Shown: positions 14,256-29,320, counted from the stretch's first letter. The stretch is 31,202 nt of DNA from a virus (IMGVR_UViG_3300028583_002208); one strand, 5' to 3'. Notes: generated by a model not told the origin, from the letters alone. Made by a program: numbers and translations.

Positions 14256-14828
14256 ATGCTTTACGGGAAAGGTTATTATAACGGAACGGTGTCTGTTGAT
14301 AGAGAGTCACATTGTTACAGGCAGTGGAAAGATATGATGACTAGGTGCCACTCTGCATCTTACAAAAAGAGAAACCCCACTACAAATTTCTCTGTTTGTG
14401 AAGAGTGGAATTGTTACGATAATTTCTACAATTGGTATAATACTAGGGGTTTTAAAGAAGGAACATTGACTTGTAACGCTAGATCACCTGATGACAAGGA
14501 GTTTAACCATTTTACAAGTACAATCTTACCTTTAGAATGGGGTCGGTTTTTATCATGGAGAAAGTCAAAAGGTGATTACAGTGAAGGCGGTTATGTAGTG
14601 AGTAAAGCTTTCGTGCTAAGGGTTAGAGATCCATTAGATAAAGGTAAAGGTACATCATCTTATCTAGGTAGATTCAATTCTGAAAAAGAATCGACAATGT
14701 TTTATGCAGAGTGGAAGAAAAGTAGAGTGAAAGTTCTTATTGACTTGTACGAAGGAGATTTGTACCTTAAAGAACAATTAGAAGATTACATTAAATATAT
14801 AGATAATTACATTGTAAAGGAAAGTTAA
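14256..14828 (+). CDS. degenerate HNH-type endonuclease paralogue
   Basis: Keeps W..M..RC and VCEEW..Y.NFY.W but lacks LDKD and the distal Asn. Confidence 0.65.
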   Translation: MLYGKGYYNGTVSVDRESHCYRQWKDMMTRCHSASYKKRNPTTNFSVCEEWNCYDNFYNWYNTRGFKEGTLTCNARSPDDKEFNHFTSTILPLEWGRFLSWRKSKGDYSEGGYVVSKAFVLRVRDPLDKGKGTSSYLGRFNSEKESTMFYAEWKKSRVKVLIDLYEGDLYLKEQLEDYIKYIDNYIVKES

Positions 14829-14829
14829 C

Positions 14830-15498: not shown

Positions 15499-15547
15499 AA
15501 ATAATGTCACTTTATTTAAAATATATTAAATTTATTTAAAAACCCCC

Positions 15548-15620
15548 TTGACCAAATAGAAAGCTTGTATTAATATTACCTTATCGAAACGGAGGTGATG
15601 TTGGTGCAAGCTTTTTCGTT
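15548..15620 (+). promoter_or_regulatory. promoter embedded in a 23-bp terminator hairpin
   Basis: TTGACC-17-TAATAT; stem 15560-15582/15592-15614 with six U-G pairs, followed by TTCGTT. Confidence 0.75.
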
Positions 15621-15652
15621 TCTAAATATTAAAACTTTTTGAGGAGAATAAT

Positions 15653-15976
15653 ATGAATTTATCAGAAAAGATCCAGCAGGAAAAGAAAGTACACTTTATT
15701 AAAGAGTTTAAAGCTAGATATCCAGAAGTGTATTCTTGGTTCAATTCTTATGAGTTTTCAAGTTTGTTTAAAAATCGTCAAGAAGTTGATTTACAAATGC
15801 AGTATAATAAATATGGAAACATAGAGACTATTCCTACTCTTCCTTTTACGGATTCTTCTGGAGAAGTTCCTTTAGGAGATATACAAACTTATTTAGAGGA
15901 AGAAGGGTTTGATGTTGGTATTAAGATACAGTACTCGTTTTTCAAATTTCTTACTGTAAGATTAAAAGGAGAATAA
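15653..15976 (+). CDS. hypothetical protein
   Basis: GAGGAG SD. Confidence 0.75.
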   Translation: MNLSEKIQQEKKVHFIKEFKARYPEVYSWFNSYEFSSLFKNRQEVDLQMQYNKYGNIETIPTLPFTDSSGEVPLGDIQTYLEEEGFDVGIKIQYSFFKFLTVRLKGE

Positions 15977-15977
15977 C

Positions 15978-16424
15978 ATGAGTGAACAAAAATTGAGAAA
16001 ATTTCGTTTGATTGATAAAGAGGGTTATTTTTCTTCTTCAACTATGAATAAAAAATATTATGAAAATTATTACACTTCTAAAAACTATTATGAAGGTTAT
16101 GTGAACGATTGTGGTGACTTGATGTGTGAAGAAGAAGATAACCTTTTAATATCTTCGGATGAATTCTCTTTATTTGAAGAACTCCCTTTAGAAGAAGAGG
16201 GTAACATTCAACAAGAACATCTTAACAACGAAGTCTCAGGCACTTTCTCAGATGAGATGATACATTGTATTAAAGAGGATTGCCACGCTGTGAACGGCTC
16301 TCTCTGCTTCTATAAAGAGGGTGTTGTGTTCTTATGGAACGAAGATGAATACTTTATAGAAAGTGTTGAAGATTACAGCAAGGTGATTAATTCTATAAAA
16401 GTGTTGAACTCTTTTAAAAAGTAA
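15978..16424 (+). CDS. acidic hypothetical protein
   Basis: AAGGAG SD. Confidence 0.75.
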   Translation: MSEQKLRKFRLIDKEGYFSSSTMNKKYYENYYTSKNYYEGYVNDCGDLMCEEEDNLLISSDEFSLFEELPLEEEGNIQQEHLNNEVSGTFSDEMIHCIKEDCHAVNGSLCFYKEGVVFLWNEDEYFIESVEDYSKVINSIKVLNSFKK

Positions 16425-16462
16425 TTTATAGTGGGTAGGATTTAATTTTGGAGGAATAATTT

Positions 16463-16675
16463 ATGAACATTAAACGAATTGAAATGGATTGGCAAATGGG
16501 CAGTCACTATGACATTTGGACAAACGCTGTAACACTTGCAGAGGATCATTGTTGCGAAGTGAGTTTTCCTTTTAATGGCAGTGTTTACATTGTGAACGAG
16601 AAATCTATCTGGAGTACAGACATACATGAGAAAATTATGGATAATGTTGGTAAAGGTGTGGAGGTGATGTTGTGA
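16463..16675 (+). CDS. hypothetical protein
   Basis: GGAGG SD. Confidence 0.75.
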   Translation: MNIKRIEMDWQMGSHYDIWTNAVTLAEDHCCEVSFPFNGSVYIVNEKSIWSTDIHEKIMDNVGKGVEVML

Positions 16676-16836
16676 AATTTGAATTTTGGTTATGGGTGTT
16701 TATTTGGACAGTAGAAACCCTTATTATAAAGTATGGTTTCGGGGTGGAAAGTTGGATTATTAGTGTTATCCTTGCAGTTACAGTAGGTAGCTTTGCTGTT
16801 TGGATGGTAAGACAATTACCCGAGTTATTAGACTGA
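16672..16836 (+). CDS. 54-aa two-helix membrane protein (not in ORF track)
   Basis: GTG start overlapping the upstream TGA; GGAGGT SD; MKFEFWLWVFIW...LPELLD*. Confidence 0.7.
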   Translation: MKFEFWLWVFIWTVETLIIKYGFGVESWIISVILAVTVGSFAVWMVRQLPELLD

Positions 16837-16847
16837 GGACTGATAAA

Positions 16848-17150
16848 ATGAAAACTTACACACAAAAGGATATTCAAGGGTCACTCAGCAACTCCTATGG
16901 AATTTGGGAAGGTGTTTACTTCAAAGATGGATTCCACTTAGGGTATGATGTAAGATACACTCCAAGTTTTCATGGTTTGGCTACACCTAAGAGAATATTT
17001 GTTGAACAAGTTTACACTGAAGAAGGAGGTCTTTTGCAAAGAGATTTCCCTTCTGAAGAATACAAAGAAATTTTTAGAAAATTTATCTATGGTCGTGAAG
17101 GTGATTGGACTTTTGATGAAAGTGTTTATGAAAAGGGGTATAATTTATGA
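16848..17150 (+). CDS. hypothetical protein (start moved from 16800)
   Basis: GAGGA SD before ATG 16848. Confidence 0.7.
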   Translation: MKTYTQKDIQGSLSNSYGIWEGVYFKDGFHLGYDVRYTPSFHGLATPKRIFVEQVYTEEGGLLQRDFPSEEYKEIFRKFIYGREGDWTFDESVYEKGYNL

Positions 17151-17575
17151 CAACAGGAACAGACCCGCATTCACTAGATAATATACTTGAAGGATGGGAA
17201 ACTTTTGAAGAAGATTACACCCTGCCACAAAATTCATTTCCAAAAATTAACGATACTTTTGCACGAAGTAGGGATTTATCAGAAGGTACTGTTACAGCAA
17301 TACAAACTATTATGGACAGGATTTATATTATCCACAAACGACCTCTGTACTATTTCCAAACGTACAAAGATGCTGTAGAATGCGTGGAATCATTGGAAAC
17401 AACACTACAATTGTTATGGGGATTTCCTTATGATAAGAAATATCAAACATATAAGTTTGGTTTCAAAGAATGTACTTGTCCAAAGGTTGATAACGCTGAA
17501 AAGGTAGGTACGGGCATTTTTGTTTATAGTGAAGGGTGTATTGTGCATAATTATTTATTCGAAGAAGGAGATTAA
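17147..17575 (+). CDS. hypothetical protein with CTCP..DN...C.VH motif (possible metal binding)
   Basis: LLWGFP...CTCPKVDN...CIVH. Confidence 0.75.
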   Translation: MTTGTDPHSLDNILEGWETFEEDYTLPQNSFPKINDTFARSRDLSEGTVTAIQTIMDRIYIIHKRPLYYFQTYKDAVECVESLETTLQLLWGFPYDKKYQTYKFGFKECTCPKVDNAEKVGTGIFVYSEGCIVHNYLFEEGD

Positions 17576-17579
17576 ATTT

Positions 17580-18056
17580 ATGAAAATAGTGAAAGGTAAT
17601 GCGGTAGATGCTTTATTAAATGGTGAAATTGACTACTTGGTACATGGTACGAATAGCCAAGGAAAATTTGCAAGTGGGATCGCTGGTGAAATCAGAAAAC
17701 GTATTCCAGAAGCTTACCAAGCATACATGAAACAATACCAACAATGGATTGACTTCGGTAAAAAGAACATCCCTCTTGGAGATTTATCCAATGGTGGGAA
17801 AGTTATCAACCTTTGTAGTCAAGAGTATTATGGTAGAAGTGGTAAACGTTATGCAAATTATGGTGCCATTGCAAGTGGGTTTTGTAACTTGTACACATAT
17901 TTACAGGACATTGACTCAAGGCATCCACGAGATTTAAAGATTGGTGTTCCTTGGATCGGAGCTGGCCTTGGCGGATGTGAACAAGAAATTATCAAAGAAT
18001 TGATTGAACATTGTTTAGATGGGTGTTATGATAGTGTGACAATTTACGAACTGTAG
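17580..18056 (+). CDS. macro domain (ADP-ribose / Appr-1''-p processing) protein
   Basis: MKIVKGNAV, LVHGTNSQGKFASGIA, VINL..Q, VPWIGAGLGG; AAGGAG SD before ATG 17580. Confidence 0.88.
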   Translation: MKIVKGNAVDALLNGEIDYLVHGTNSQGKFASGIAGEIRKRIPEAYQAYMKQYQQWIDFGKKNIPLGDLSNGGKVINLCSQEYYGRSGKRYANYGAIASGFCNLYTYLQDIDSRHPRDLKIGVPWIGAGLGGCEQEIIKELIEHCLDGCYDSVTIYEL

Positions 18057-18065
18057 GAGAATATT

Positions 18066-18752
18066 ATGGGTACAGATATACACGGTGGCTTTATTAAGAA
18101 AGGTGGTTTTGGTCCTAGAGGAGAAACGCTTCACAATGTAGCTATCGAAACTTCTTGGGGATTAGGCCGTAATTATACTTTATTTGCAATATTAGCTGAT
18201 GTAAGAAATGGTTATGGGTTTGCTGGTAGTTACCGACACGAACCTTTACAAGCTATTGCACCCGACAGAGGTATCCCTACTTGGTTGGAGGTAGATGAGG
18301 ACAATTACTGTGCAGAGTTAGTAAATAAGTGGTACGGCACAAAATATGCTGACCCCGAAGAACATTTCATGGGTACAGACTTAGGAGAGCATAGTTTTAC
18401 TTATATGACTCTTTCAGAGATAATTAATTGGGAAGGTTGGGATAGCTGCCTATCACAAGGGGGTGTTGTTAGTAAAGAACATTATGAAGAAACTATCACC
18501 AAGGGTAACACTCCTGAATGTTGGTGTGGCGATGTAATTGGAGCTGATGTGCATGTCGTAGATGAGAGTATTTACAAAACCATTACAGAATTATGTAACT
18601 ACGAAGGTAAGCAAATTACTCATATAAGTTGTCGTTGGAAGTCGGAAGACACTTTACGAGAAATGTATCAATGGTTTTTAGATGAAGTTGTACGTATAGG
18701 TGATAAATATGGCTATGATGAAGTGTATCTTGTTGTAGGTTTTGATTCGTGA
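18066..18752 (+). CDS. conserved hypothetical protein
   Basis: MGTDIH, RNYTLFAILADVRNG, HSFT, terminal VGFDS motifs. Confidence 0.8.
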   Translation: MGTDIHGGFIKKGGFGPRGETLHNVAIETSWGLGRNYTLFAILADVRNGYGFAGSYRHEPLQAIAPDRGIPTWLEVDEDNYCAELVNKWYGTKYADPEEHFMGTDLGEHSFTYMTLSEIINWEGWDSCLSQGGVVSKEHYEETITKGNTPECWCGDVIGADVHVVDESIYKTITELCNYEGKQITHISCRWKSEDTLREMYQWFLDEVVRIGDKYGYDEVYLVVGFDS

Positions 18753-18866
18753 AACAAATAATCATCGGAGGCACACTATTGAAGAAGTAGAACCTTTTGA
18801 GAAAACTGTCACCATGTACAGAAGTGTAAAATAACTTCCACCAAAGGATAACCCTAATCACAAAAC

Positions 18867-18910
18867 AACCCCTTCTGCGCCTTCACACAGCGTACAAGGG
18901 GTTTTCTTTT
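18867..18910 (+). terminator. intrinsic terminator
   Basis: AACCCCTT/AAGGGGTT stem plus inner stem and T tract; shares the 17-mer GGGGTTTTCTTTTGCCT (18898-18914) with 10399-10415. Confidence 0.75.
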
Positions 18911-19057
18911 GCCTAATGGGTAATCACCTTATGAAATGGAAACTCTTGCGAGAGGGGCTTATTGACAAAATAGCACCTTATTGACAAATAACATCCTGAG
19001 GCTAGTTTCATTTGTGGTGAAGCGGATTGAATTTTTGAAAAGGGTATGGGATTCATG

Positions 19058-19086
19058 TTGACAGGGCAGGATTTTATTGATAAAGT
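19058..19086 (+). promoter_or_regulatory. sigma70-like promoter
   Basis: TTGACA-17-TAAAGT with extended -10 TG. Confidence 0.65.
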
Positions 19087-19116
19087 TATGTTTTAATTTT
19101 ATAAGAGGTAAGAGTT

Positions 19117-19416
19117 TTGAAAGGTTATAAATTTAAGATAGGAGTTAAGCTGTTGAAATGGGGTTCACTTTTAGTGTTCAAAGATCAACAGTCTAAAGAT
19201 TTATTAAAAGATGTGGTAAATCGTAACACTTTGATAGGAAGTATTGTCGAAAGTGGTAATCACATTGCAGGAGATGTACAACCTTTATGTGAGTATGATA
19301 CACAGTCAATTGTTAATGTATTGAAACAAGAGTTACTTATTAAAAAGGATCTTGCATTTGTGGGTATGTCACCTACTGACAAGATGAGTTGTTATAAGGA
19401 AAAGTGGAAGTATTAA
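19117..19416 (+). CDS. hypothetical protein
   Basis: TTG start, AGAGGT SD, own promoter. Confidence 0.6.
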   Translation: MKGYKFKIGVKLLKWGSLLVFKDQQSKDLLKDVVNRNTLIGSIVESGNHIAGDVQPLCEYDTQSIVNVLKQELLIKKDLAFVGMSPTDKMSCYKEKWKY

Positions 19417-19434
19417 AAATAGAAAACAAGGATG

Positions 19435-19646
19435 TTTCATTTGCAAAATTTTGAAACTGGGCACTCGTTTGATGCGGGTAATTTTGAACTCGGCATTAAT
19501 TTTATTTAGGTCCGTTTACTACTTTTATCTAAGGTAAACCCGTTTAAAATCAATAGGTTAGAATCCGTCCACGTTTTTCATTTGCCCGAAACAGGTTAAA
19601 ATTTTTATAGGCGGATATTTTCATCTGCCAAAAACTGAACCCGTTT
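19435..19646. repeat. cluster of short direct repeats in non-coding DNA
   Basis: TTTCATYTG at 19435, 19576, 19619 (also 19006); AATTTTGAA(A)CT at 19447 and 19480; AACCCGTTT at 19537 and 19638. Confidence 0.55.
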
Positions 19647-19809
19647 TGCAATGATATACTATATCAAAATATATGAGATATTATATCATCACATTTTAAA
19701 TTTCACGCAGCCTCGGTGTTTTATTCTTCACCGTTCCCGCTTTCGCTAAAGTTCGTATGCTTGTTTCTATATATTCCATTATACGCATATAATAATAGAT
19801 TACAATACC

Positions 19810-19917
19810 TTTTTAAAAATAAATTAAATTAATTTTATTGTGGATAACTTTTTAACTGTGGATAACTAAATAAGCTTGTGGGTAACTCTTCTAAACGCTA
19901 CCCTGCAGCGTGTATAA
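19810..19917. promoter_or_regulatory. DnaA-box cluster next to a 30-bp pure A/T tract
   Basis: TGTGGATAA at 19839-19847 and 19857-19865 (perfect); TGTGGGTAA 19877-19885 and CGTGTATAA 19909-19917 (one mismatch); A/T-only 19810-19839. Confidence 0.75.
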
Positions 19918-19984
19918 CACCGTATAAGCAGATCTAAACTTAACTATATAAAACTACCTTTATTAAAATAGCCTCTTAAAATCG

Positions 19985-20097
19985 CATACAGGCGCTCGCA
20001 GGAATGACAGGATCGGGTCCGTCCCGCAATAGCTTTGATCTTTAGCTCTTCGAGCCTATCGCGTCACCACCTTGCCGCCTGTTAACCTGTTATCTGC
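19985..20097 (-). ncRNA. candidate structured non-coding RNA
   Basis: GC-rich island without an ORF, just downstream of a strong minus-strand promoter; nested stems whose mismatches read as G-U only on the minus strand. Confidence 0.45.
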
Positions 20098-20102
20098 TAA
20101 TA

Positions 20103-20131
20103 ATTATAAGCCCTTACAAATAATATTGCAA
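20103..20131 (-). promoter_or_regulatory. sigma70 promoter, leftward, inside a hairpin
   Basis: TTGCAA-17-TATAAT on minus strand; IR 20108-20119/20126-20137. Confidence 0.7.
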
Positions 20132-20149
20132 GGGCTTTTTATAAATAAT

Positions 20150-20281
20150 TTATAAAGTTTCTAAAAATATCCTTTTTGCTCTGTCCATACCTTCTTCGAT
20201 AATAGCGCAGAACATCCCGTAATTATATACAGTGACAGATCCGTCTTTGTTTTGTTTAAACTTATAGTTACATGTATTCAT
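20150..20281 (-). CDS. 43-aa hypothetical protein (not in ORF track)
   Basis: MNTCNYKFKQNKDGSVTVYNYGMFCAIIEEGMDRAKRIFLETL*; AAAAGG SD; own promoter. Confidence 0.65.
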   Translation of the reverse strand: MNTCNYKFKQNKDGSVTVYNYGMFCAIIEEGMDRAKRIFLETL

Positions 20282-20326
20282 AATATACGCCTTTTAAATA
20301 ATATTAATCTTTGTTTGTGTGCCGCC

Positions 20327-20356
20327 ATTATATAAGCAAAGTTTTTACCCTGTCAA
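20327..20356 (-). promoter_or_regulatory. sigma70 promoter, leftward
   Basis: TTGACA-18-TATAAT on minus strand. Confidence 0.65.
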
Positions 20357-20413
20357 CAAAGATCACTAATTATTTGCAAAATAAATTAATTTAATAAATA
20401 TAGCTTTTATTTG

Positions 20414-20442
20414 TTGACAGGTGATCCGTTATTTGTAATACT
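20414..20442 (+). promoter_or_regulatory. sigma70 promoter with GATC in the spacer
   Basis: TTGACA-17-AATACT with extended -10 TG. Confidence 0.65.
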
Positions 20443-20484
20443 GGCATTGTTCCAACGGGGAACGGCTTATATTAAAGGCTTATT

Positions 20485-20646
20485 ATGAATATCTATCAAG
20501 AAAATGGATACACTGATCGCAAAGATTATCTAAATTGTTTAGCTGAAGACCTAGGCGTAGACCTTGAAACAGTACTTTTAACTGCTGAATTGCTCGGTTC
20601 AAGTGAAGACTTTGACGGCCTGATCAGTATGTTAGAAGATATCTAA
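20485..20646 (+). CDS. 53-aa highly acidic early protein (not in ORF track)
   Basis: MNIYQENGYTDRKDYLNCLAEDLGVDLETVLLTAELLGSSEDFDGLISMLEDI*; AAAGG SD; the YQENGY...EDFDGL pattern looks to me like a widespread small phage protein family. Confidence 0.85.
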   Translation: MNIYQENGYTDRKDYLNCLAEDLGVDLETVLLTAELLGSSEDFDGLISMLEDI

Positions 20647-20664
20647 AAATACTTTAAAAAGTGG

Positions 20665-20694
20665 TTGACAGGTTAAAAGGTCAACCGCTACAAT
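20665..20694 (+). promoter_or_regulatory. sigma70 promoter (twin of 22851)
   Basis: TTGACA-18-TACAAT. Confidence 0.75.
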
Positions 20695-20740
20695 ACAAAC
20701 AAGTTAAACAAACATAAACAACTTTAAAAGGTGGTATATC

Positions 20741-21517
20741 ATGAACAATTTTGATCAATCTTCAAGCGGTGTTAATTTAGAATTAAATATTAGTTTTGAT
20801 GCGGATCGCGCTCGTAGGGAATTTGAGGAAAATTTTTATATATTACAGTATAGCGACTATAGACAAACCAGTGTGCTAGTTTTTAACCAATTTGGCAATT
20901 TTGATGTAATAGATTTTACCTTAACAGATCTTAGTAATTATCACATAGAAGAGTTAACAGCAAAGCAAATCTTTAAGGCTTTTTATAATTACCAATACCC
21001 AACTGATATAGATCATGATCTTAAATGTTCAGATTTTGCCAGCATTAAAGATCTGTTACAAAATTTACAAATTGAAAATTTAAACACACTTGATCAAAGT
21101 GAAATATTAGAAGCAATCGAGACAGATCTTTATTGTGATAGCAGTTTTCAAGAATTTTTAAAAGATACCTTTACATGTAATTATTTGACTATAGATAGTC
21201 GCGGATATTCTCAAGGGGATTACTCACAGATCATCATACCTGCTCAAGTCTTAAAGAGTTACAAGGATCAAACACCGGAACAAATAGAGAATAATTTGCA
21301 GAGTGTTATTGATCATTTGCTATGGGATCAGCCTTTATCCGCTAGGTTGACAATTGATGACGAAGAATTTTATATTGACGAACATTTAAAAAATGAGTAT
21401 GAATATGATCAAGATGAGATCAAACAGATACTAACCGATCACTTAGAGCATGAACAAAAAGATTATATACTTGGCTGGGTAAACGATAACTTACCAACCG
21501 ATCCAGCTTACTATTAA
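20741..21517 (+). CDS. acidic early protein (258 aa) with RGYSQGD motif
   Basis: Long ORF with SD; about 20% D+E and about 6% K+R by hand count. Confidence 0.85.
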   Translation: MNNFDQSSSGVNLELNISFDADRARREFEENFYILQYSDYRQTSVLVFNQFGNFDVIDFTLTDLSNYHIEELTAKQIFKAFYNYQYPTDIDHDLKCSDFASIKDLLQNLQIENLNTLDQSEILEAIETDLYCDSSFQEFLKDTFTCNYLTIDSRGYSQGDYSQIIIPAQVLKSYKDQTPEQIENNLQSVIDHLLWDQPLSARLTIDDEEFYIDEHLKNEYEYDQDEIKQILTDHLEHEQKDYILGWVNDNLPTDPAYY

Positions 21518-21543
21518 TTTTAACATTTAAAAGGTTTTAATCT

Positions 21544-21717
21544 ATGTTTTACTTAATAATATTACATACTGAATATTACGGTGAAGAGTTGCAGGAATTT
21601 ACCACGCAAAGAGAACGACAACAAGTTATAGAAGGGTATAAACATATGTTTTTTAACAATGGCTTAGAAGATGCAAAATATATAACTTTTGAGGGTGATA
21701 TATATAATTATAAATAG
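21544..21717 (+). CDS. 57-aa hypothetical protein (not in ORF track)
   Basis: MFYLIILHTEYYGEELQEF...IYNYK*; AAAAGG SD. Confidence 0.7.
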   Translation: MFYLIILHTEYYGEELQEFTTQRERQQVIEGYKHMFFNNGLEDAKYITFEGDIYNYK

Positions 21718-21743
21718 CTCACTGTAAAGATAAACGTTAATCT

Positions 21744-21765
21744 AGCCGCTTAATTGCGGCTTTTT
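21744..21765 (+). terminator. intrinsic terminator
   Basis: AGCCGC-TTAATT-GCGGCT followed by TTTT. Confidence 0.75.
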
Positions 21766-21814
21766 CACGCTTGATAACACTTTTCTGCACGTAAAGATAA
21801 TTTTATAAAATGGC

Positions 21815-21842
21815 TTGCATTGATCTGTTAATAGTGTATATT
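21815..21842 (+). promoter_or_regulatory. sigma70 promoter with GATC in the spacer
   Basis: TTGCAT-16-TATATT. Confidence 0.55.
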
Positions 21843-21878
21843 TAAACTCAATGAAACCAGCAAACGAGGCTTTATATT

Positions 21879-22067
21879 ATGATTAAAATTAATCCAACTA
21901 ACAAAGAGTTGAACCAGCTAATTGAGGATCATGATCTACAGTTGATCATCAATAACACGCCTTCAAGTAATGAATTTTTTAAAAATGGCAATAAACTTTT
22001 ACAGGTTATTTTTGCGCCATGTGGTAGTTATAGGAAAGTTTTTATAAATTTTGAAATAGACCATTGA
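21879..22067 (+). CDS. hypothetical early protein
   Basis: GAGG SD; own promoter. Confidence 0.7.
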   Translation: MIKINPTNKELNQLIEDHDLQLIINNTPSSNEFFKNGNKLLQVIFAPCGSYRKVFINFEIDH

Positions 22068-22091
22068 CAGCGGATCAAATATCCTTATAAT
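22064..22091 (+). promoter_or_regulatory. sigma70 promoter with GATC in the spacer
   Basis: TTGACA-16-TATAAT. Confidence 0.75.
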
Positions 22092-22166
22092 GTGTACGTA
22101 TTGAAACAATGAACAATTAACACAAGGTAGTTAAACGCTACCTCTAATTAACAAAGGTATACAATT

Positions 22167-22544
22167 ATGTACTCACAATTAAAAGTTAAACTTGAAAAAT
22201 CATTAGGCTATAATCATTTTACATTAGATGATGGTGATCAGAGTTTTGTAACTGTACCCACTAATCATTTATATTTAGTAGATGACTTTTACAGCGTTAA
22301 CGTTGGTCATGTGGTTTATTCTAACGTATCAGAGTATGATCAAGTGCTAGTTAACATTAAAACCATCACAGACCACTGCAAGGCCGCACAAGATGAATTA
22401 AGCGACTATATACAAGTAGTTTATTTACAAGGTACTGATCACCCTTGGCGCGTTGTTTTTGGGGGGTTTGATAATGATTTACAAGACTTTGATTTTGAAG
22501 AATTGGATCAACTTTTAGATAAATTAAAAACTTTTGAATTTTAG
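22167..22544 (+). CDS. acidic hypothetical early protein
   Basis: AAAGGT SD. Confidence 0.8.
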   Translation: MYSQLKVKLEKSLGYNHFTLDDGDQSFVTVPTNHLYLVDDFYSVNVGHVVYSNVSEYDQVLVNIKTITDHCKAAQDELSDYIQVVYLQGTDHPWRVVFGGFDNDLQDFDFEELDQLLDKLKTFEF

Positions 22545-22555
22545 TAAATAAAAGC

Positions 22556-22584
22556 TTGCAATCAATAATCAATTGAATTAATAT
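22556..22584 (+). promoter_or_regulatory. sigma70 promoter
   Basis: TTGCAA-17-TAATAT. Confidence 0.7.
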
Positions 22585-22650
22585 TATTACATCGTTTACG
22601 ATGCTATTGGCTGGCAACGGGTTAGCCACTTTTAAAAATAAGGTTTTATT

Positions 22651-22836
22651 ATGGATTACTTCAAAGCTTTTAAACATTCTGCAAGTTGTAAATACATTTA
22701 CGATTGTTACCGTATACAAGCTAATAACAAGGATCACGCTATAGAGTTGATCAAGGCTAAAACAGGTGTTATTTGCGACTATGCAATGAAAAATGTTGGT
22801 AATTGGGATCACCCTCAAATCATAGACTTGGATTAA
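22651..22836 (+). CDS. hypothetical early protein
   Basis: TAAGGT SD; own promoter. Confidence 0.75.
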   Translation: MDYFKAFKHSASCKYIYDCYRIQANNKDHAIELIKAKTGVICDYAMKNVGNWDHPQIIDLD

Positions 22837-22850
22837 ACATTAAAAAGCGG

Positions 22851-22879
22851 TTGACACCACCAACGCCAACCGCTACAAT
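22851..22879 (+). promoter_or_regulatory. sigma70 promoter (twin of 20665)
   Basis: TTGACA-17-TACAAT. Confidence 0.8.
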
Positions 22880-22921
22880 CAGCACTCAATTAAACAATTA
22901 CATTATTAAAAAGGTTTTACC

Positions 22922-23296
22922 ATGAAATTAACAGATTTTGATCAATCAATTACACTAGCACAAAATAAGATATCTACCCTTAGCGCCGCCCGTTATGGTA
23001 AAGTATGGAAATTTTACTGTAAACATGTAACAGATGATCAAGGCTACGAATACGGTTTACCTTACAAAAGTAAACAAGCGATTTTAAATGATACTTATGA
23101 TTATGCTTTAAAACAAAGCGGTTTTAACTTTAAAGAATCGGATCTTTTACCTGTAGTGCCAAAACTTACAACGTTAACATTAACACAGGATCAAAAGGTA
23201 GCTATTAACACCGCGATTAGTTTAATCGGAAATAGTGAATCAGATCACGCTGAACAGTGTTACATGTATTTAAAGCAAATCGTAAAAAACTTTTAA
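22922..23296 (+). CDS. hypothetical early protein
   Basis: AAAGGT SD. Confidence 0.8.
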   Translation: MKLTDFDQSITLAQNKISTLSAARYGKVWKFYCKHVTDDQGYEYGLPYKSKQAILNDTYDYALKQSGFNFKESDLLPVVPKLTTLTLTQDQKVAINTAISLIGNSESDHAEQCYMYLKQIVKNF

Positions 23297-23302
23297 AACC
23301 GC

Positions 23303-23331
23303 TTGCACAATTAAACATTATCATTTAATAT
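23303..23331 (+). promoter_or_regulatory. sigma70 promoter
   Basis: TTGCAC-17-TAATAT. Confidence 0.7.
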
Positions 23332-23380
23332 TAAATTCATGGTTAGCAACGGGCTAGCCACTTAAACAAAGGCATACATT

Positions 23381-23587
23381 ATGAAAACTTTCACATTCCA
23401 AACACGTACAGCTTTACGCAACTTTATTAAATCAGTTAAAGCAGACAACCTTGTTAAAATCGAATCTAACGAGCGCAGTAAGGCCACAGGCGAAAAATGG
23501 GCCGCCACTATGCCAAGTGTTAAGCCAATTAATAAAAAGCGCTTTGAGGTTGTGAATGGGGCTGCAGTTGCTGCAAAATTAGTTTAA
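23381..23587 (+). CDS. basic hypothetical early protein
   Basis: AAAGGC SD. Confidence 0.75.
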   Translation: MKTFTFQTRTALRNFIKSVKADNLVKIESNERSKATGEKWAATMPSVKPINKKRFEVVNGAAVAAKLV

Positions 23588-23607
23588 CTTTTAAAAAGGA
23601 ATATAAC

Positions 23608-23814
23608 ATGCAATTTTTAAACTTTTTCGGTGAGAATGTTCAAGGTGTTGCGTTCAACTTTGATTATAAAGATTATAATATAAGTGTTAGCGGTTGCACA
23701 CCAACGGGTAATTTAGAAATTATGGTGTTTAATGATACTGAGAATATGCAAAAACGTTTTAACAGTGTTGAGTCTGCTATTATTGGTATTGATAAGATGA
23801 TTTTAAATAAATAG
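23608..23814 (+). CDS. hypothetical early protein
   Basis: AAAGGA SD. Confidence 0.75.
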   Translation: MQFLNFFGENVQGVAFNFDYKDYNISVSGCTPTGNLEIMVFNDTENMQKRFNSVESAIIGIDKMILNK

Positions 23815-23846
23815 TAGCATTTTATAAAAATAAAATGTTTTAGTTG

Positions 23847-23874
23847 TTGCGTTCTGTATTATCTTGTGTAAAAT
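23847..23874 (+). promoter_or_regulatory. sigma70 promoter within an inverted repeat
   Basis: TTGCGT-16-TAAAAT; GCGTTCT (23849) / AGAACGC (23875). Confidence 0.6.
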
Positions 23875-23940
23875 AGAACGCATCTGAACAAGAACATTTT
23901 AATACTGAAAATTTACATTAAACAAGGGTAGGATTTAAAA

Positions 23941-24171
23941 ATGGCTACACGTTACACTAAAAATTCATTAATTGCAGATTTAGAAGGTTTAAACAAAGAT
24001 CTTGTTAACAAAGGCTTATCTGAATATAAATTCAAGTACCAAGGGCGCAATGGTTATCATGCTGTAGATTTATACAAGAACGATAAATGTCTACGTTGTG
24101 TTGATTGTGCCGAACCACCAAAGGATCTTTATTTAGTGGCGTTGGAACAATTTGAAAATTTAACAAATTAA
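23941..24171 (+). CDS. hypothetical early protein
   Basis: SD present; own promoter. Confidence 0.75.
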   Translation: MATRYTKNSLIADLEGLNKDLVNKGLSEYKFKYQGRNGYHAVDLYKNDKCLRCVDCAEPPKDLYLVALEQFENLTN

Positions 24172-24184
24172 TTAAAACTTTTTG

Positions 24185-24213
24185 TTGACAACAGACAACA
24201 CTTAACCTAGAAT
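24185..24213 (+). promoter_or_regulatory. sigma70 promoter
   Basis: TTGACA-17-TAGAAT. Confidence 0.75.
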
Positions 24214-24271
24214 TACATTACTGAAACAAAACGCCACTATCGGCAAATTACATTTTAAAAGTGAGAATATT

Positions 24272-24550
24272 ATGACTACGTTTTTAGTTATCCAAGATCA
24301 ACAAATTATTGATACAGTTTTTTATACAGGCCATACAGCGGTAGAGGTTAAAGAGTCTTTAATCAGTCGAGGTGAATTTTCAGAAAATATTCATGTTTTA
24401 GAAGATAGTGAAATAACAAGGGATCTTGCTGAGACGGATAACAATGATTCACACTTTATTGCCAATAATGAAAACGCTTATTTATTGGCTATTGAAACAG
24501 GTTTTATGGATGAAAACACATTAGAAACTTTTGAAGACTATTTAAATTAA
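24272..24550 (+). CDS. acidic hypothetical early protein
   Basis: IDTVFY...EVKESLI motif; own promoter. Confidence 0.75.
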   Translation: MTTFLVIQDQQIIDTVFYTGHTAVEVKESLISRGEFSENIHVLEDSEITRDLAETDNNDSHFIANNENAYLLAIETGFMDENTLETFEDYLN

Positions 24551-24553
24551 AGC

Positions 24554-24592
24554 TTGCATTGTTGATGTGTTTAATATTATAATGAGCACATC
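24554..24592 (+). promoter_or_regulatory. sigma70 promoter with GATGTG/CACATC arms around the -10 box
   Basis: TTGCAT-18-TATAAT. Confidence 0.65.
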
Positions 24593-24679
24593 TTAACAAA
24601 GCCGCTGTTTAACCACGGTACTTTGTAAACAAAATTATTAACAGGCAATTACGCCATTATTTAAAAAGAGTATATTATT

Positions 24680-24931
24680 ATGAAAGCAATCCAAATTAAA
24701 TACCTATCAGCTACTAACACTAAAAATGCACGTTTAAAAGTTTGGGCAGAACAAGCTAAACCAGTACAATACAGTGTTGAAAGTTTTGACACTAACAGTG
24801 TTCAATCTATAGAATTACAAGCCGCTTATAAATTTGCACAAAGTAAGAACTGGTTACAAGATGGCAGTTACAAGCTTGAAATAGGCATGTTACCAAACCT
24901 TGATCACTGCGCTGTAATTGTTGCAAAATAG
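24680..24931 (+). CDS. conserved-looking hypothetical early protein
   Basis: MKAIQIKYLSATNTKNARLK pattern. Confidence 0.8.
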   Translation: MKAIQIKYLSATNTKNARLKVWAEQAKPVQYSVESFDTNSVQSIELQAAYKFAQSKNWLQDGSYKLEIGMLPNLDHCAVIVAK

Positions 24932-24934
24932 TAG

Positions 24935-24972
24935 TTGTTTTATTGATGTGATTATACTACAATGATCGCATC
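24935..24972 (+). promoter_or_regulatory. sigma70 promoter homologous to 24554
   Basis: TTGTTT-17-TACAAT; GATGTG/CGCATC arms. Confidence 0.65.
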
Positions 24973-25018
24973 TTAATAAAGTAATTAATTAAACCCTACA
25001 ATTTAAAAAGGTAATAGA

Positions 25019-25420
25019 ATGTTAAATATTAACAAGTTTGAATCAAAATATAAATCATTTGTAACTTTTCACGGAAATGTTAAGGATCTTTTTGAGTCCA
25101 TCAGAGTAGAGAAGCATTGCAGCAATGAGCCGCACGGATGGGTTAAAGAACTGACACTTTCCTTTCCTACTGGATTTTATAATGGTAAGAGTTACTATAT
25201 TAAACCAACCGAGGAATTAAACCATTTATTAAAAGAGTACAATATCTATGGTGATCCTCAGTATAAAGATATTTATTTAAGTATTGATAAGTTCGGAAAT
25301 GATGATCATTTTACAATATCAATAAAGTATCAACAAATATTAGGATCTTATAAATTAATCAAGATTAGTAATGATCAATTTAATACGTTGTTAGATGATC
25401 TTGGTTACACTAAAGACTAA
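25019..25420 (+). CDS. hypothetical early protein
   Basis: AAAGGT SD. Confidence 0.8.
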   Translation: MLNINKFESKYKSFVTFHGNVKDLFESIRVEKHCSNEPHGWVKELTLSFPTGFYNGKSYYIKPTEELNHLLKEYNIYGDPQYKDIYLSIDKFGNDDHFTISIKYQQILGSYKLIKISNDQFNTLLDDLGYTKD

Positions 25421-25428
25421 CCAACAAA

Positions 25429-25446
25429 GGCGGGAAAACTCCCGCC
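25429..25446. other. GC-rich hairpin (possible minus-strand terminator or mRNA stabiliser)
   Basis: GGCGGGA-AAAC-TCCCGCC; a T-rich tail exists only on the minus strand. Confidence 0.5.
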
Positions 25447-25477
25447 AATTACCCAAACTTTTAAAAGGCATTCAAAA

Positions 25478-25618
25478 ATGAACAACTTTATCAAAACAAC
25501 ACGCACCAACAAAAACAAACCACACACAAAAAATAACCAATTCAAACAGGATCATGACACTTTGCAACGTGAACGCAAGAATGCCCGCAAGGCTAAACAA
25601 TTCTTAAAATCGTTATAA
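25478..25618 (+). CDS. 46-aa basic peptide (not in ORF track)
   Basis: MNNFIKTTRTNKNKPHTKNNQFKQDHDTLQRERKNARKAKQFLKSL*; AAAAGG SD. Confidence 0.7.
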   Translation: MNNFIKTTRTNKNKPHTKNNQFKQDHDTLQRERKNARKAKQFLKSL

Positions 25619-25632
25619 CAGAGGCGGCAAAT

Positions 25633-25917
25633 ATGAGTTTATTCAAAGCATTATTCCCTAGTCAGCAAGACCAACAAATTGCACAAGCTAAGGCACAATT
25701 AAAACGAGATGAAACCGATACGTTTACCAAACTACGTTTGCAAGGCTTGGAACGTACACTCAAGGCAATGGATAAAACACAAGCTCAATGTGTGTTAAAC
25801 GCTTTTAAAAGCTTGTTACAATTGAAAGCTGAAGGGGAGCATATGCTATATATTAATAATGTTCATTATAAAGTGACGTTTAAAAATGGTGCATTGGCTG
25901 CAATTGAAGAAATTTAA
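25633..25917 (+). CDS. hypothetical early protein
   Basis: GAGG SD. Confidence 0.75.
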   Translation: MSLFKALFPSQQDQQIAQAKAQLKRDETDTFTKLRLQGLERTLKAMDKTQAQCVLNAFKSLLQLKAEGEHMLYINNVHYKVTFKNGALAAIEEI

Positions 25918-25940
25918 TTAAATTAATTTGTAAAAAGGGG

Positions 25941-25978
25941 TTGTTATTAAAATTTAGATGTGAGACTATAAGCACATC
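25941..25978 (+). promoter_or_regulatory. probable promoter with GATGTG/CACATC arms
   Basis: TTGTTA-17-GACTAT with extended -10 TG. Confidence 0.45.
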
Positions 25979-26018
25979 GGAGCAATACAGCCCGACAATT
26001 TAAAATTAAGGTGATACA

Positions 26019-26231
26019 ATGGAAAACTTAAATTTAACAGATCATCAGATTAAAAATTTAATCGATTTACACGAGCTAAAGTTAAGATCGTCCGAGGGGG
26101 TTACACTTGCAACAAATTATTATTCTAACGATGACCTTAGCTTTGAGCTGTTGATCATTTTTAATAATACCACTTGTGAAAAGTTAATTTACACGTGTGA
26201 AAATGAATCCATTTTTAATATCGATATTTAA
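26019..26231 (+). CDS. hypothetical early protein
   Basis: TAAGGT SD. Confidence 0.75.
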   Translation: MENLNLTDHQIKNLIDLHELKLRSSEGVTLATNYYSNDDLSFELLIIFNNTTCEKLIYTCENESIFNIDI

Positions 26232-26286
26232 ACTTACACGGCTAGCTATAAAAAGCTAGCCACCTTTAACAATAGGATAATTAAAC

Positions 26287-26412
26287 ATGATAACATTCAA
26301 ACAGAGGTTAAAACTTAAACTAAAATCAACCCATTGTAACCAGTGGCTAGTTATTGCGGGTTTATGTGTTACACTTGCAGCAACGTTATCATTTTTAATT
26401 AGCTTATTATAA
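26287..26412 (+). CDS. 41-aa peptide with basic N-terminus and C-terminal TM helix (not in ORF track)
   Basis: MITFKQRLKLKLKSTHCNQWLVIAGLCVTLAATLSFLISLL*; AGGA SD. Confidence 0.65.
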   Translation: MITFKQRLKLKLKSTHCNQWLVIAGLCVTLAATLSFLISLL

Positions 26413-26432
26413 TTTTAAACAAAGGTGATATA

Positions 26433-26663
26433 ATGAAAGAATCAGATAGAACAATATTAAATGTTATTATATGGGTGGTGGTTTTATCAGTGTTGTATAT
26501 TGCAGCAAACTTTAATACCCATTTATTCGAATTAGGTGGTATTGTAGCAGATACTCCAGCACCTTTTAACGAGATGATGTTCAAAATGACATTTAATCAA
26601 CTTGAAGTAAACGGCAATTATACAGATGCAATTTGCTTTACACTTGGCTATTACATTTATTAA
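26433..26663 (+). CDS. membrane-anchored small protein
   Basis: N-terminal TM helix; AAAGGT SD. Confidence 0.7.
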   Translation: MKESDRTILNVIIWVVVLSVLYIAANFNTHLFELGGIVADTPAPFNEMMFKMTFNQLEVNGNYTDAICFTLGYYIY

Positions 26664-26677
26664 CAGGACAATTAACA

Positions 26678-26821
26678 ATGAATATAACAATTAATTTTAA
26701 AAGCGGAAAATCTTTAAACGTCTACGCGGTGGATTATGCAGCAGCAAAGGCGATTAAATTTAGTAAAAAATATCGTGGTTTGATAAATAGTGTTGTTGAT
26801 CGTTTGGGCAATCGTATTTAA
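26678..26821 (+). CDS. 47-aa hypothetical protein (start moved from 26633)
   Basis: AGGA SD before ATG 26678. Confidence 0.65.
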   Translation: MNITINFKSGKSLNVYAVDYAAAKAIKFSKKYRGLINSVVDRLGNRI

Positions 26822-26835
26822 TTTGAAATAAAACA

Positions 26836-26874
26836 TTTACTTTTAAATTAATAGCCTGTAATATTCGGGTTATT
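26836..26874 (+). promoter_or_regulatory. promoter with the -10 box in a hairpin loop
   Basis: TTTACT-17-TAATAT; AATAGCCTG (26850) / CGGGTTATT (26866). Confidence 0.55.
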
Positions 26875-26930
26875 CCTTAAGAGATAACTTTTATTAAATC
26901 TTTACCAATAAACTAGAAAGGCTAAACACT

Positions 26931-27101
26931 ATGAAAACTTTAACAGAAATGGATAACCGTTTACAAGCTGCACTATTAGAACTAGCAACACTTGAACAAA
27001 AATTCTTTGATACAACGTGCCAGCATGAACAGCAACAATTAGCGCACAAGATTGTAAAGTGTGAAAACTTGATCATTGAGTTGGAATTAAAACTTAAATA
27101 A
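26931..27101 (+). CDS. 56-aa coiled-coil-like protein (not in ORF track)
   Basis: MKTLTEMDNRLQAALLELATLEQKFF...ELELKLK*; AAAGGC SD. Confidence 0.75.
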   Translation: MKTLTEMDNRLQAALLELATLEQKFFDTTCQHEQQQLAHKIVKCENLIIELELKLK

Positions 27102-27112
27102 AGGCTAAGATA

Positions 27113-27289
27113 ATGACAAATAATAAATTTTACTCAAAACGTACACAAGCTTACATGAAAAAGCAAACACTTAAACACAAGGGGGTTAACCTTGCTAAAA
27201 GCTTGTTGTGGTTAATGGTGCCGTGTGCGCTGGTGGGGATTGTTGTATTGGATTGGGTTGGGGTTATCCGTTTGAGTTGGATTTTTTAA
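27113..27289 (+). CDS. 58-aa peptide with basic N-terminus and C-terminal TM helix (not in ORF track)
   Basis: MTNNKFYSKRTQAYMKKQTLKHKGVNLAKSLLWLMVPCALVGIVVLDWVGVIRLSWIF*; AAAGGC SD. Confidence 0.7.
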   Translation: MTNNKFYSKRTQAYMKKQTLKHKGVNLAKSLLWLMVPCALVGIVVLDWVGVIRLSWIF

Positions 27290-27317
27290 AAAGATTGATT
27301 TAATTTGTGAAAAGGTA

Positions 27318-27346
27318 TTGCCTTTTATAAAAAGTTGTTGTATTAT
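27318..27346 (+). promoter_or_regulatory. sigma70 promoter
   Basis: TTGCCT-17-TATTAT. Confidence 0.65.
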
Positions 27347-27382
27347 TTAAACACTGAAATAAACAATTAAAAAGGCGATAAA

Positions 27383-27712
27383 ATGTTAAATACTACTGAA
27401 ATCGGGAAAACAATTACACGCGCTGCAAAGGGTAACTTTAAGTCTAAATTCGTTATTGCACACAAGGATGAAAAAGGTATATATGTTTTAGATGTTAAGT
27501 TTGATCCAAAATCAGCCACTTTAAAACCTGTCACATATGACAAAATAAAGTTAATACCTGTTAGCCAATATCCTTTATATAAAGTGGTTAGTGCATCTAG
27601 CATTATGGCTGGCACAATGGGGTCATCTCATGGTGATACATGCACACAAGATCAATTTGTAGAGTTACAAAACATTGCTTTAGATTTTATCAATAGAGGT
27701 GATGTTGTTTAA
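27383..27712 (+). CDS. hypothetical early protein (last gene of the module)
   Basis: AAAGGC SD. Confidence 0.8.
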   Translation: MLNTTEIGKTITRAAKGNFKSKFVIAHKDEKGIYVLDVKFDPKSATLKPVTYDKIKLIPVSQYPLYKVVSASSIMAGTMGSSHGDTCTQDQFVELQNIALDFINRGDVV

Positions 27713-27737: not shown

Positions 27738-27762
27738 GCCCACTTTAAACAGTGGGCTTTTT
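27738..27762 (+). terminator. intrinsic terminator
   Basis: GCCCACT-TTAAAC-AGTGGGC-TTTTT. Confidence 0.85.
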
Positions 27763-27809
27763 ACGTTGCATAATATAATAAACCTCTTAAAATAACCCAG
27801 TCCAAATAT

Positions 27810-28732
27810 AAACACATCTTGATAAAATCATAACACTTTGTTTTATAAACCTAGTATAAAACAATAATTACATCCTATCGTACAATAGTACACTCTTTAA
27901 TCTAATATTGCCCACTTTCAAAACAATGTTATCCTCTTACAACAATGTAATCCCATCTTATAAAATACCCTTCTAGCAATTATAAATATTAATAACATCA
28001 TACTGTTATATGAAATATGAGCCACTTTTAACAACGTTTGACAGCACTTAATACTAAAGTGGATACATTACACTATGAGAATGATTAAGATTACAGGTGG
28101 TCTATTCTAACAATGTATTACTAAAGCTTATTATATATGTAATAAAACATATAATAAAAATTACCTTTTGTAATGGTGGCTGTTTATCACATAGGATTAA
28201 GGTGTTTTTATGTGATAGAGGGGATTAATACATTAATAAATGAATTAGGGATTAGCTTGTAAAGCTTATAGGAATAGAGCTTAGTTAGTGGGGATTGTAT
28301 GTATAATAAGGGATAGCTATTAATACAACGTATTAGAATGATTATAATTCGTTACATAGTAACAAAGAGGGAACACTTCGACACGTTGTGTCAAATGGTA
28401 ATTATTCTTGTTTACATGTAAACAAATGGAGCTACTTAGGTTATAGATGAATATGAGGGAAAGGTGGGAGGATTTTGTGTCTGGTGTTTTTAACCATTTA
28501 AAAACGCAATGCCACAATCTATCCCACTCCCTCACCTATTTGTTACGAAGTAACACAAGTATCCCCACTTCTAAAAATATAATCCCACTTTCCACACCAA
28601 TTAAATAACTATTGATTAAATGTTAATAGTTTTAACACAATGTAATAATTGCACAAAGTGGGGTAATCTTTGTTTTATTGTAGTAATTGGGTTTATAAAA
28701 CAAAAGGGGATAATACTTTGATTGATGTGTTT
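27810..28732. repeat. long-range degenerate inverted repeat plus dispersed CCACTT motifs in non-coding DNA
   Basis: Four collinear blocks at 27810-27918 are inverted at 28655-28732. Confidence 0.65.
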
Positions 28733-29156
28733 TCCTTCATAACCTAGAAGCTACCTTATGTTAAATTACCTTTTGGAATAAGGAATCTATTTATTGAAAG
28801 GTTTTGTTATAAGGGTATTACTTGTTAATGAAAGGTTATTATTGTGGGAAGTGGATTATTGTGGGAAGGGGGATAGATATTGGCAAATATTTCTATATTC
28901 TGGTGAAATGAGAATGATTCGTATTCAAAGTGTTAAACGACTCAAACCTAAATGTTTGATATTTCTACAAATAACCTTTCTCAAAGGGTATCCTATTTAT
29001 CTCATAAGATTATTTTGAAAATATAAATTTACCAATAAAAACTAAACTCTCTAAAGGAATATTATTAAAAATAATAAGACTAATCTAAATAAGAATCACT
29101 ACTATTCACAATAAAACCAATCCATCCTAGAGCGTTTAGTTTTTTCTCAAAAGAAA

Positions 29157-29320
29157 TACTTTCACCTAAGGTATTCTCTCTTCGAGAGGTGCGTGGTTTG
29201 TACAGTAGATATATTTGAGCAAATAGATATTTTCACCTAGGGTATTTTGGATTGGTCTGGGAAATTTTAAGGGTAGATATTTTAGGCAGGGTATTTTAAA
29301 GTGAGGTGAAAAATCACCTC
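29157..29320. repeat. short direct/inverted repeat cluster
   Basis: TAYTTTCACCTARGGTATT at 29157 and 29228; TAGATATTTT at 29224 and 29274; AGGGTATTTT at 29239 and 29288; hairpin GAGGTGA-AAAA-TCACCTC 29303-29320. Confidence 0.65.

Follow-up and report, generated by a model that had tools for sequence, protein, structure and literature searches.

The GATC-rich tract analysed here lies in the genome of a marine Pseudoalteromonas myovirus of the ICP1-like group (IMGVR_UViG_3300028583_002208). We refer to the whole stretch of 31,202 nt that was analysed as the window. On its left the window carries a tightly packed operon, followed by a control region, an array of small spaced genes and a stretch without open reading frames (ORFs). 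The individual features are:

634..19416, plus strand: tightly packed operon in which GATC is counter-selected, encoding an SLT lysozyme-like domain, two RNA ligases, PNKP and a macro domain
19417..20484, no strand: non-coding or small-gene control region upstream of the array
19839..19885, minus strand: three DnaA boxes in the same orientation at the left edge of the tract, two of them perfect (TTATCCACA) and one with one mismatch
19930..27650, no strand: the GATC-rich tract, with 61 sites, a peak at 20.7-22 kb and a rightward decay
20150..20281, minus strand: divergent gene of 43 amino acids (aa), its protein 87% identical to ICP1 gp25
20485..27712, plus strand: about 20 small genes set apart from one another (the array), in synteny with gp23-gp7 of ICP1, an array classed as "Early" by RNA sequencing
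20741..21517, plus strand: gene for a 258-aa protein without Pfam family, the first sizeable gene of the array, at the tract peak and with 16 GATC
27738..27757, no strand: terminator-like bidirectional hairpin that closes the array
27760..29300, no strand: ORF-less, GATC-free stretch, corresponding by synteny to the ICP1 ORF-less gap with the pac site

A sequence-only reading had counted GATC by hand and described a sharply bounded enrichment of this Dam site across the early module. Exact counting confirmed the contrast. The 61 sites of the tract amount to 1 per 127 bp, with 40 of them in 20000-23250, versus 34 sites in 436-19900 (1 per 572 bp) and none in 27660-29300, an absence that is not significant alone given the genome-wide depletion of GATC. 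Since the G+C content is 30-34% everywhere in the window, base composition is not the cause of this contrast. With expectations derived from trinucleotide counts, the observed/expected ratio (O/E) of GATC was 2.04 in the tract, compared with 0.61 on the left side of it and 0.22 on the right side. The boundaries had to be redrawn, however: the density climbs over about 1 kb, reaches its maximum at 20.7-22 kb and tails off rightwards, so only the left edge is fairly sharp while the right side is a gradual decay. Other palindromes in the tract were not avoided, yet not enriched either. An excess of GCGC in the tract (13 sites versus 2) was discarded as a candidate, as it is explained by trinucleotide content (Markov O/E 1.01).

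We compared the coding sites with two codon-level nulls. In the first, synonymous codons were shuffled within each gene; in the second, the order of codons was shuffled within each gene, which breaks dipeptides. The genes of the tract contain 51 GATC, versus 38.3 ± 3.0 under the synonymous shuffle (z 4.2) and 20.1 ± 4.2 under the codon-order shuffle (z 7.5). The enrichment survives both, and under both GATC is the top-ranking one of the 256 tetramers in the tract. For the left operon its ranks under the two nulls are 229th and 242nd, with 34 sites versus 44.9 (synonymous) and 54.1 (codon-order) expected. GATC is under opposite selection in the tract and in the left operon.

The enrichment is 2-4 fold in all three codon phases and in non-coding DNA. 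Compared to the codon-order expectation, we counted 42 sites versus 15.7 in phase 0, 2 versus 0.6 in phase 1 and 7 versus 3.8 in phase 2. The intergenic spacers of the tract hold 4 GATC versus 1.1 expected (p 0.024), and the non-coding kilobase upstream holds 6 versus 1.4 (p 0.005). As the sequence-only reading had noticed, coding sites come mainly from GAT-Cnn codon junctions (42/51), and its suspicion that they shape the encoded proteins was borne out by both codon and amino-acid choice. The codon after GAT starts with C in 38.5% of cases in the tract and in 6.9% in the left operon, while codons starting with C make up 14% and 12% of all codons, respectively. Leucine after GAT is encoded by CTN in 11 of 15 cases in the tract versus 2 of 26 in the left operon. 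Among the dipeptides of the tract, Asp-His reaches 4.3 times and Asp-Gln 2.2 times the expectation; after Glu and Asn, the same next residues are not above expectation there. The bases flanking the tract's GATC sites are near-symmetric and track codon usage. TGATCA occurs 17 times in the tract, and the flanking bases alone predict 16, so selection acts on the bare tetramer. RGATCY is not enriched in the tract, and no motif beyond the tetramer is selected. Thus, GATC itself is under selection, in coding DNA in three phases as well as in non-coding DNA.

Twelve further genomes served as comparison set: the Pseudoalteromonas phages HM1 and J2-1 (Qingdaovirus), H101 (Shandongvirus), six metagenomic contigs, the Vibrio phages ICP1 and PWH3a-P1 and Shewanella phage 1/40. 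HM1 and J2-1 are 84-87% identical to the window over aligned patches, and H101 matches it in patches. All twelve genomes are GATC-depleted overall. Relatives have the enrichment as well: one clear GATC-rich tract lies at the same place in 11 of the 12, and contig L015 displays a weak rise. Total counts, mononucleotide expectations and local densities were as follows:

H101: 246 GATC versus 451 expected; bins of 20, 12, 10 and 7 per 2 kb at 52-60 kb
J2-1: 233 GATC versus 397 expected; bins of 13 and 19 per 2 kb at 60-64 kb
HM1: 250 GATC versus 426 expected; bins of 7, 14 and 11 per 2 kb at 0-6 kb
ICP1: 264 GATC versus 428 expected; 35 sites in 6.3-11.1 kb
PWH3a-P1: 308 GATC versus 423 expected; 50 sites in 27-33 kb
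Shewanella phage 1/40: 228 GATC versus 471 expected; 15 sites in 128-130 kb

The tract is the highest GATC bin genome-wide in all six complete genomes, and codon-order O/E in the relatives' complete genomes was 1.9-2.4 within the tract versus 0.48-0.56 outside. For a density composite, 11 genomes were anchored on the first sizeable gene of the array. Mean GATC per kb was 1.5-2 upstream of it and then 5.4, 10.7, 8.1, 4.4, 4.4, 3.5, 3.1 and 2.9, down to about 1. The tract is therefore a peak in the array's first 1-2 kb with a tail along the direction of transcription, and no sharply bounded block.

What the peak covers differs between genomes. The slot is taken by the 258-aa protein in the window, by denV in HM1, J2-1 and H101, and by unrelated genes in ICP1, where we found no homologues of the window's array genes. 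The first slot also holds the 258-aa protein followed by denV (L015) or by UvdE (L021), and UV-repair genes recur in it. The map order is common to ICP1 and the window: packed operon (gp46-gp28), divergent gp25 with gp24, spaced array (gp23-gp7), terminators and ORF-less gap. The non-coding DNA of ICP1 contains 10 GATC versus 4.6 expected. The tract holds its map position even over unrelated genes, and the rest of the genome counter-selects GATC.

We detected 71 homologues of the 258-aa protein. The tract is present on the contigs of homologues down to 34% identity (L014, L021, L016, L017 and L018) and weaker in L015. Genes of this family contain 16, 11, 9, 9, 7, 6 and 4 GATC within this phage group. 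The family members of two unrelated phages, with a similar Asp content, have 2 and 0, and site positions mostly differ among family members. Of the aligned GATC sites, 25/36 were kept, versus a tetramer background of about 0.54, and the relatives' own gains amount to 2-6 sites. These alignments indicate that GATC density is conserved through site turnover. Since density is kept while sites turn over, we infer continuing selection on position, and not inherited sites or a property of the proteins. A scan of IMG/VR with ORF 22167-22544 matched H101 and an HM1-like contig only, and a scan with the 258-aa protein gave no match. Contig L019 (1-20648), one of those from the two unrelated phages and of the 46-kb class, encodes an N6_N4 methyltransferase and a family member that is 27% identical to the 258-aa protein; it has 0 GATC in its 20.6 kb versus 21-27 expected per half. 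TnpB / IS605 OrfB-like genes were found in the operon upstream of the array in L014 (3960-5411), L016 (4833-5939) and L021 (4356-5810), and none in the window.

Near-consensus sigma-70 promoters precede many of the array genes individually, such as those at 20414, 20665, 22064, 22851, 24185 and 24786. All array genes were searched against Pfam, and none belonged to a family above cut-off. The three promoter spacers in which the sequence-only reading had placed GATC sites (20423, 21822 and 22073) all contain one, but the site that can be aligned is not conserved in relatives. In ICP1, the Early class defined by RNA sequencing comprises gp8-21, gp25, gp28-52, gp61-66, gp95-106 and others (PMC7567579, Table S1). 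We found gp16-23 of ICP1 to be GATC-enriched (O/E 2.0, z 3.8), as are gp24-27, whereas gp7-15, gp28-46, gp47-52, gp61-66 and gp95-106 have an O/E of 0.29-0.65. The enrichment thus does not extend across the early module, as had been proposed, but in ICP1 marks only the head of one array, with the other Early clusters depleted. The ICP1 temporal classes also rule out the general candidate that all early genes are GATC-rich.

A further proposal, that the tract belongs to the first-entering DNA, found no support. In ICP1, headful packaging starts at a pac site located between gp1 and gp2, in an ORF-less gap (PMC7145576), and because of this the ends of the genome are not unique. This gap is syntenic with 27.76-29.3 kb of the window. 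HM1 is recorded in a circular permutation with respect to the window, and the two ends of its record meet at 28104-28122 of the latter. Repeats, both tandem and dispersed, also occur in the stretch at 27760-29300, among them those at 28838-28871 and 29150-29314. The first-step-transfer DNA of T5 contains 26 GATC versus 35 expected, ruling out that first-step-transfer DNA is GATC-rich in general. T5 resembles the present phages in that small pre-early takeover genes lie beside a long ORF-less stretch; it differs in that its block has no GATC excess, and in that ICP1-type phages package by headful from pac.

Between operon and array, the window displays in this order an A/T-only tract and the three DnaA boxes (both within 19810-19885), a G+C-richer stretch and the divergent 43-aa gene. 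The G+C-richer stretch at 19985-20131 is ORF-free, lies between the DnaA boxes and a strong hairpin, contains three GATC and possibly corresponds to a small RNA. No matches came from scans of the window for Rfam families and tRNAs, 19985-20131 being included in the Rfam scan. The 43-aa gene has a perfect consensus promoter at 20356-20327 and a hairpin at 20108-20137. Over 116 nt its DNA is 78% identical to that of ICP1. Neither the much closer relatives HM1, J2-1 and H101 nor six related contigs have it, and other small genes occupy its slot there. Judging by these comparisons, it would be either unusually conserved or recently exchanged.

Other words are unevenly distributed, too. GGAG occurs 4 times in the array (20485-27712) and 99 times in the left operon (634-19416) if both strands are counted, and in place of GGAG the array genes carry a common upstream motif, TTTAAAAGG(T). 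This scarcity suggests different translation signals in the array, or avoidance of a GGAG-directed activity. CCGG is missing from 436-19900 (0 versus 8.8 expected) and rare in the tract (1 versus 7.4 expected), and GCGC is scarce in 436-19900 (2 versus 5.8 expected); both probably reflect avoidance of host restriction sites. Within the GATC-depleted operon, 6501-9580 encodes a T4-like RNA repair set consisting of an RNA ligase 1 family protein, a polynucleotide kinase-phosphatase and an RNA ligase 2 family protein.

We consider it highly probable that positive selection maintains a position-specific density of Dam sites in the tract and that this density is a signal at the DNA level. In the best reading, the tract acts in cis as DNA and not via the proteins it encodes. 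Our best explanation as a whole, in which the density signal works through its methylation state, is more tentative and, in our judgement, possible rather than probable. A replication timer operated by SeqA, the mechanism that we would prefer, is slightly more doubtful again. In this proposal, the signal would be read via adenine methylation, set by host Dam together with a phage methyltransferase made middle-late. Virion DNA would arrive fully methylated, and the first round of replication would turn the tract into the sole hemimethylated GATC-dense patch on the phage chromosome. A reader of hemimethylation, most likely host SeqA, would then bind the tract and shut down or sequester the strongest promoters for host RNA polymerase. 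Immediate-early expression would thereby be confined to the unreplicated parental genome. The timing fits such a mechanism: transcripts of the ICP1 array are at their maximum at 4 min, and by 8 min the phage is already replicating (PMC7567579, PMC7145576). A precedent is offered by the GATC clusters proposed to act within coding sequences of E. coli (PMC493266).

The Alteromonadales are part of the clade that has Dam, SeqA and MutH. ICP1 infects V. cholerae, whose essential genes include dam and seqA (PMC8826520). The search for a phage dam gave a divided result. Dam-type adenine methyltransferase families exist in relatives: HM1 and J2-1 carry a putative dam gene of family PF05869 (46.7 bits against NCBIfam TIGR01712, curated cut-off 97), and ICP1 gp196 is a D12-class (PF02086) putative methyltransferase, which is listed as "Dam" and as Middle-late (PMC7567579). 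However, neither the PF05869 nor the PF02086 model matched H101, which encodes an N6_N4 enzyme (PF01555, at 31063-31848) and others, and the PF02086 model matched neither 1/40 nor PWH3a-P1. The adenine methyltransferases of the relatives therefore differ by family (PF05869, PF02086 and PF01555), a pattern that would correspond to non-orthologous replacement of the same kind of function.

These gaps and differences among the methyltransferases weigh against a methylation-based timer, and so do several further results. We found no phage homologue of SeqA or MutH, only sub-threshold chance matches broken by stop codons. SeqA binds best to two sites that are no more than 31 bp apart and on one helical face. 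In the tract, 10 adjacent GATC pairs lie within 31 bp, versus 13.1 under uniform placement or 14.5 under local jitter, and their spacings (6, 6, 11, 11, 15, 17, 19, 24, 26 and 29 bp) reveal no helical preference. Because close pairs are not enriched, the sites are dispersed rather than clustered, which weakens the recruitment of SeqA that the sequence-only reading had put forward. Other Early clusters of ICP1 are shut off without a GATC excess, and therefore a GATC-based shut-off is not generally needed. Finally, GATC is palindromic, so that strand cannot separate selection at the DNA level from selection at the RNA level.

One alternative is that the tract is a zone of breaks or nicks. GATC would be cut by MutH or another GATC-directed nuclease in under-methylated replicating DNA; the genome at large would purge the word, and the tract would keep numerous, evenly distributed sites that feed recombination, either for shuffling of the array or for recombination-dependent replication. 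MutHLS counter-selection of GATC in enterobacterial phages was reportedly described by McClelland in 1985 and by Deschavanne and Radman in 1991. Such counter-selection accounts for the background O/E of about 0.5 and fits a break zone. It predicts depletion everywhere, however, and gives no reason for a conserved local two-fold excess: GATC is below codon expectation outside the tract (O/E 0.48-0.61), and the tract is the reverse. Dispersed, unpaired sites would suit a function that depends on the distance to the nearest site, and the array is extremely mosaic between relatives. On the other hand, selection for evolvability is weak, breaks are costly in a genome that is packaged whole, and no nuclease was identified. 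In ICP1, moreover, the rolling-circle origin and a coverage discontinuity are at the pac gap and not at the tract (PMC7145576). We regard a break zone as unlikely.

No more likely, in our view, is a role as a mark towards host defence. Dense methylated or methylatable GATC beside the first expressed genes would act as a self-like flag or a decoy to a host inspection system, or would protect this DNA until anti-defence proteins are made. The array is the expected place for anti-defence and takeover genes, and the early genes of ICP1 include the anti-BREX gene orbA (PMC9040626). Adenine methyltransferases of various families are also kept in the group. However, a flag for the whole genome would not be limited to a few kb, and other palindromes in the tract are merely left unavoided rather than enriched. 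We also know of no defence system that reads the density of GATC methylation.

Selection could instead concern RNA. T4 RegB cuts GGAG in early messages, and GAUC in immediate-early transcripts might similarly be the site of an endoribonuclease or an RNA-binding protein that keeps message life short, with later messages avoiding GAUC. In line with this, the array and its divergent partner are enriched in their transcribed DNA while GATC is depleted elsewhere, and the array differs from the operon in a second word that can act at the RNA level (GGAG, 4 versus 99 on both strands). Yet no GAUC-specific RNase is known to us, and the palindrome coincides with the very word on which Dam, SeqA and MutH act in these host clades. 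Promoter spacers contain some of the sites, ahead of the start points of transcription, and the other Early transcripts of ICP1 have no excess. An RNA-level signal is thus improbable in our estimate.

Still less probable is imitation of the host origin, as which the sequence-only reading had interpreted the tract with its adjacent DnaA boxes. The A/T tract, the DnaA boxes and the GATC-rich flank would together imitate oriC and load host replication proteins, or titrate SeqA and DnaA. The pR promoter of phage lambda is a target of both DnaA and SeqA. The boxes themselves are real: an A/T-only tract with two perfect and one near-perfect box lies at the edge of the GATC tract (19810-19885), and boxes are present in 6 of the 11 genomes compared, window included. 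Perfect pairs recur in L014, L016, H101 and J2-1; in HM1, one box is perfect and two are near-perfect. But the boxes are absent from ICP1, L015, L017, L018 and L021, and four of these five keep the tract, L015 having the weak rise. The boxes are accordingly dispensable, and the candidate that they are part of the element is ruled out.

The comparison with known origins leads in the same direction. E. coli oriC has 11 GATC in 245 bp, with spacings that suit SeqA dimers. Like the GATC clusters of oriC and the dnaA promoter, which serve sequestration by SeqA, the tract holds the same tetramer far above background in phages of a Dam/SeqA/MutH host clade, and in the window it adjoins DnaA boxes and an A/T tract. 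It differs from them in consisting of about 60 sites dispersed over 7.7 kb, mostly in genes and without an excess of close pairs, and about 60 sites per genome would be a poor titrator beside the host chromosome. In ICP1 the tract is not the origin, as the theta origin is near 60 kb, away from it (PMC7145576).

The absence of any function, with GATC arising incidentally from the acidity of early proteins, from codon-pair habits or from genes recently imported from GATC-neutral DNA, would agree with the 42 of 51 coding sites at GAT-C junctions and with the gene-fluid array, but we consider it very improbable and largely refuted, given that both codon nulls are rejected, that non-coding DNA is enriched too, that Glu and Asn lack the same neighbour excess, that import would give an O/E of about 1 instead of 2 and no gradient, and that 258-aa homologues in other phages hold 0-2 sites.

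The DNA-level density signal that we favour also differs from the systems in which GATC is known to matter. P1 pac and oriR, Mu mom, the IS10 transposase promoter and, with SeqA and DnaA, lambda pR are Dam-controlled sites, and IS10 couples expression to the passage of the replication fork. As proposed for the tract, functions there are gated by the methylation state of GATC. However, those cases rely on few fixed sites in a promoter, an origin or a cleavage site, whereas the sites of the tract turn over with density alone being kept, and the pac-like gap of the window is without GATC. In the E. coli "GATC network", clusters of GATC in coding sequences were proposed to control transcription by their methylation state, possibly through SeqA (Henaut 1996; Riva 2004, PMC493266). 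The two share in-frame GATC above codon expectation (51 sites in the tract versus 20.1 and 38.3). The network, however, comprises tight clusters in scattered chromosomal metabolic genes, with a hypothetical mechanism, while the tract is one graded kb-scale block at a fixed map position in a phage that purges GATC. Literature searches on ICP1 and GATC, or on a GATC excess in early genes of phages, returned nothing relevant. In the literature searched we found no published description of a GATC-rich early tract in ICP1 or another phage; as a pattern, the tract is well supported.

GATC with Dam, SeqA and MutH is the best-known epigenetic system of bacteria, and the phages of these hosts are known for purging the word. 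A local excess that is conserved at an amino-acid cost in fast-evolving genes points to something that reads GATC on early phage DNA. Since genetics, transcriptomes and replication maps exist for ICP1, a direct test is possible, and its outcome would be a methylation-based timing or anti-defence device, or a new reader of GATC. In uncultured phages of the ICP1-like group, the tract makes it simple to find from sequence where the immediate-early array begins. More tentatively, a graded, kb-scale tract of Dam sites that heads the immediate-early array may constitute a new epigenetic cis-element in phages of Dam-positive gammaproteobacteria, whose methylation state (full on entry, hemimethylated once the first fork has passed) would mark the parental versus the progeny copy of the genome and so time the early programme.

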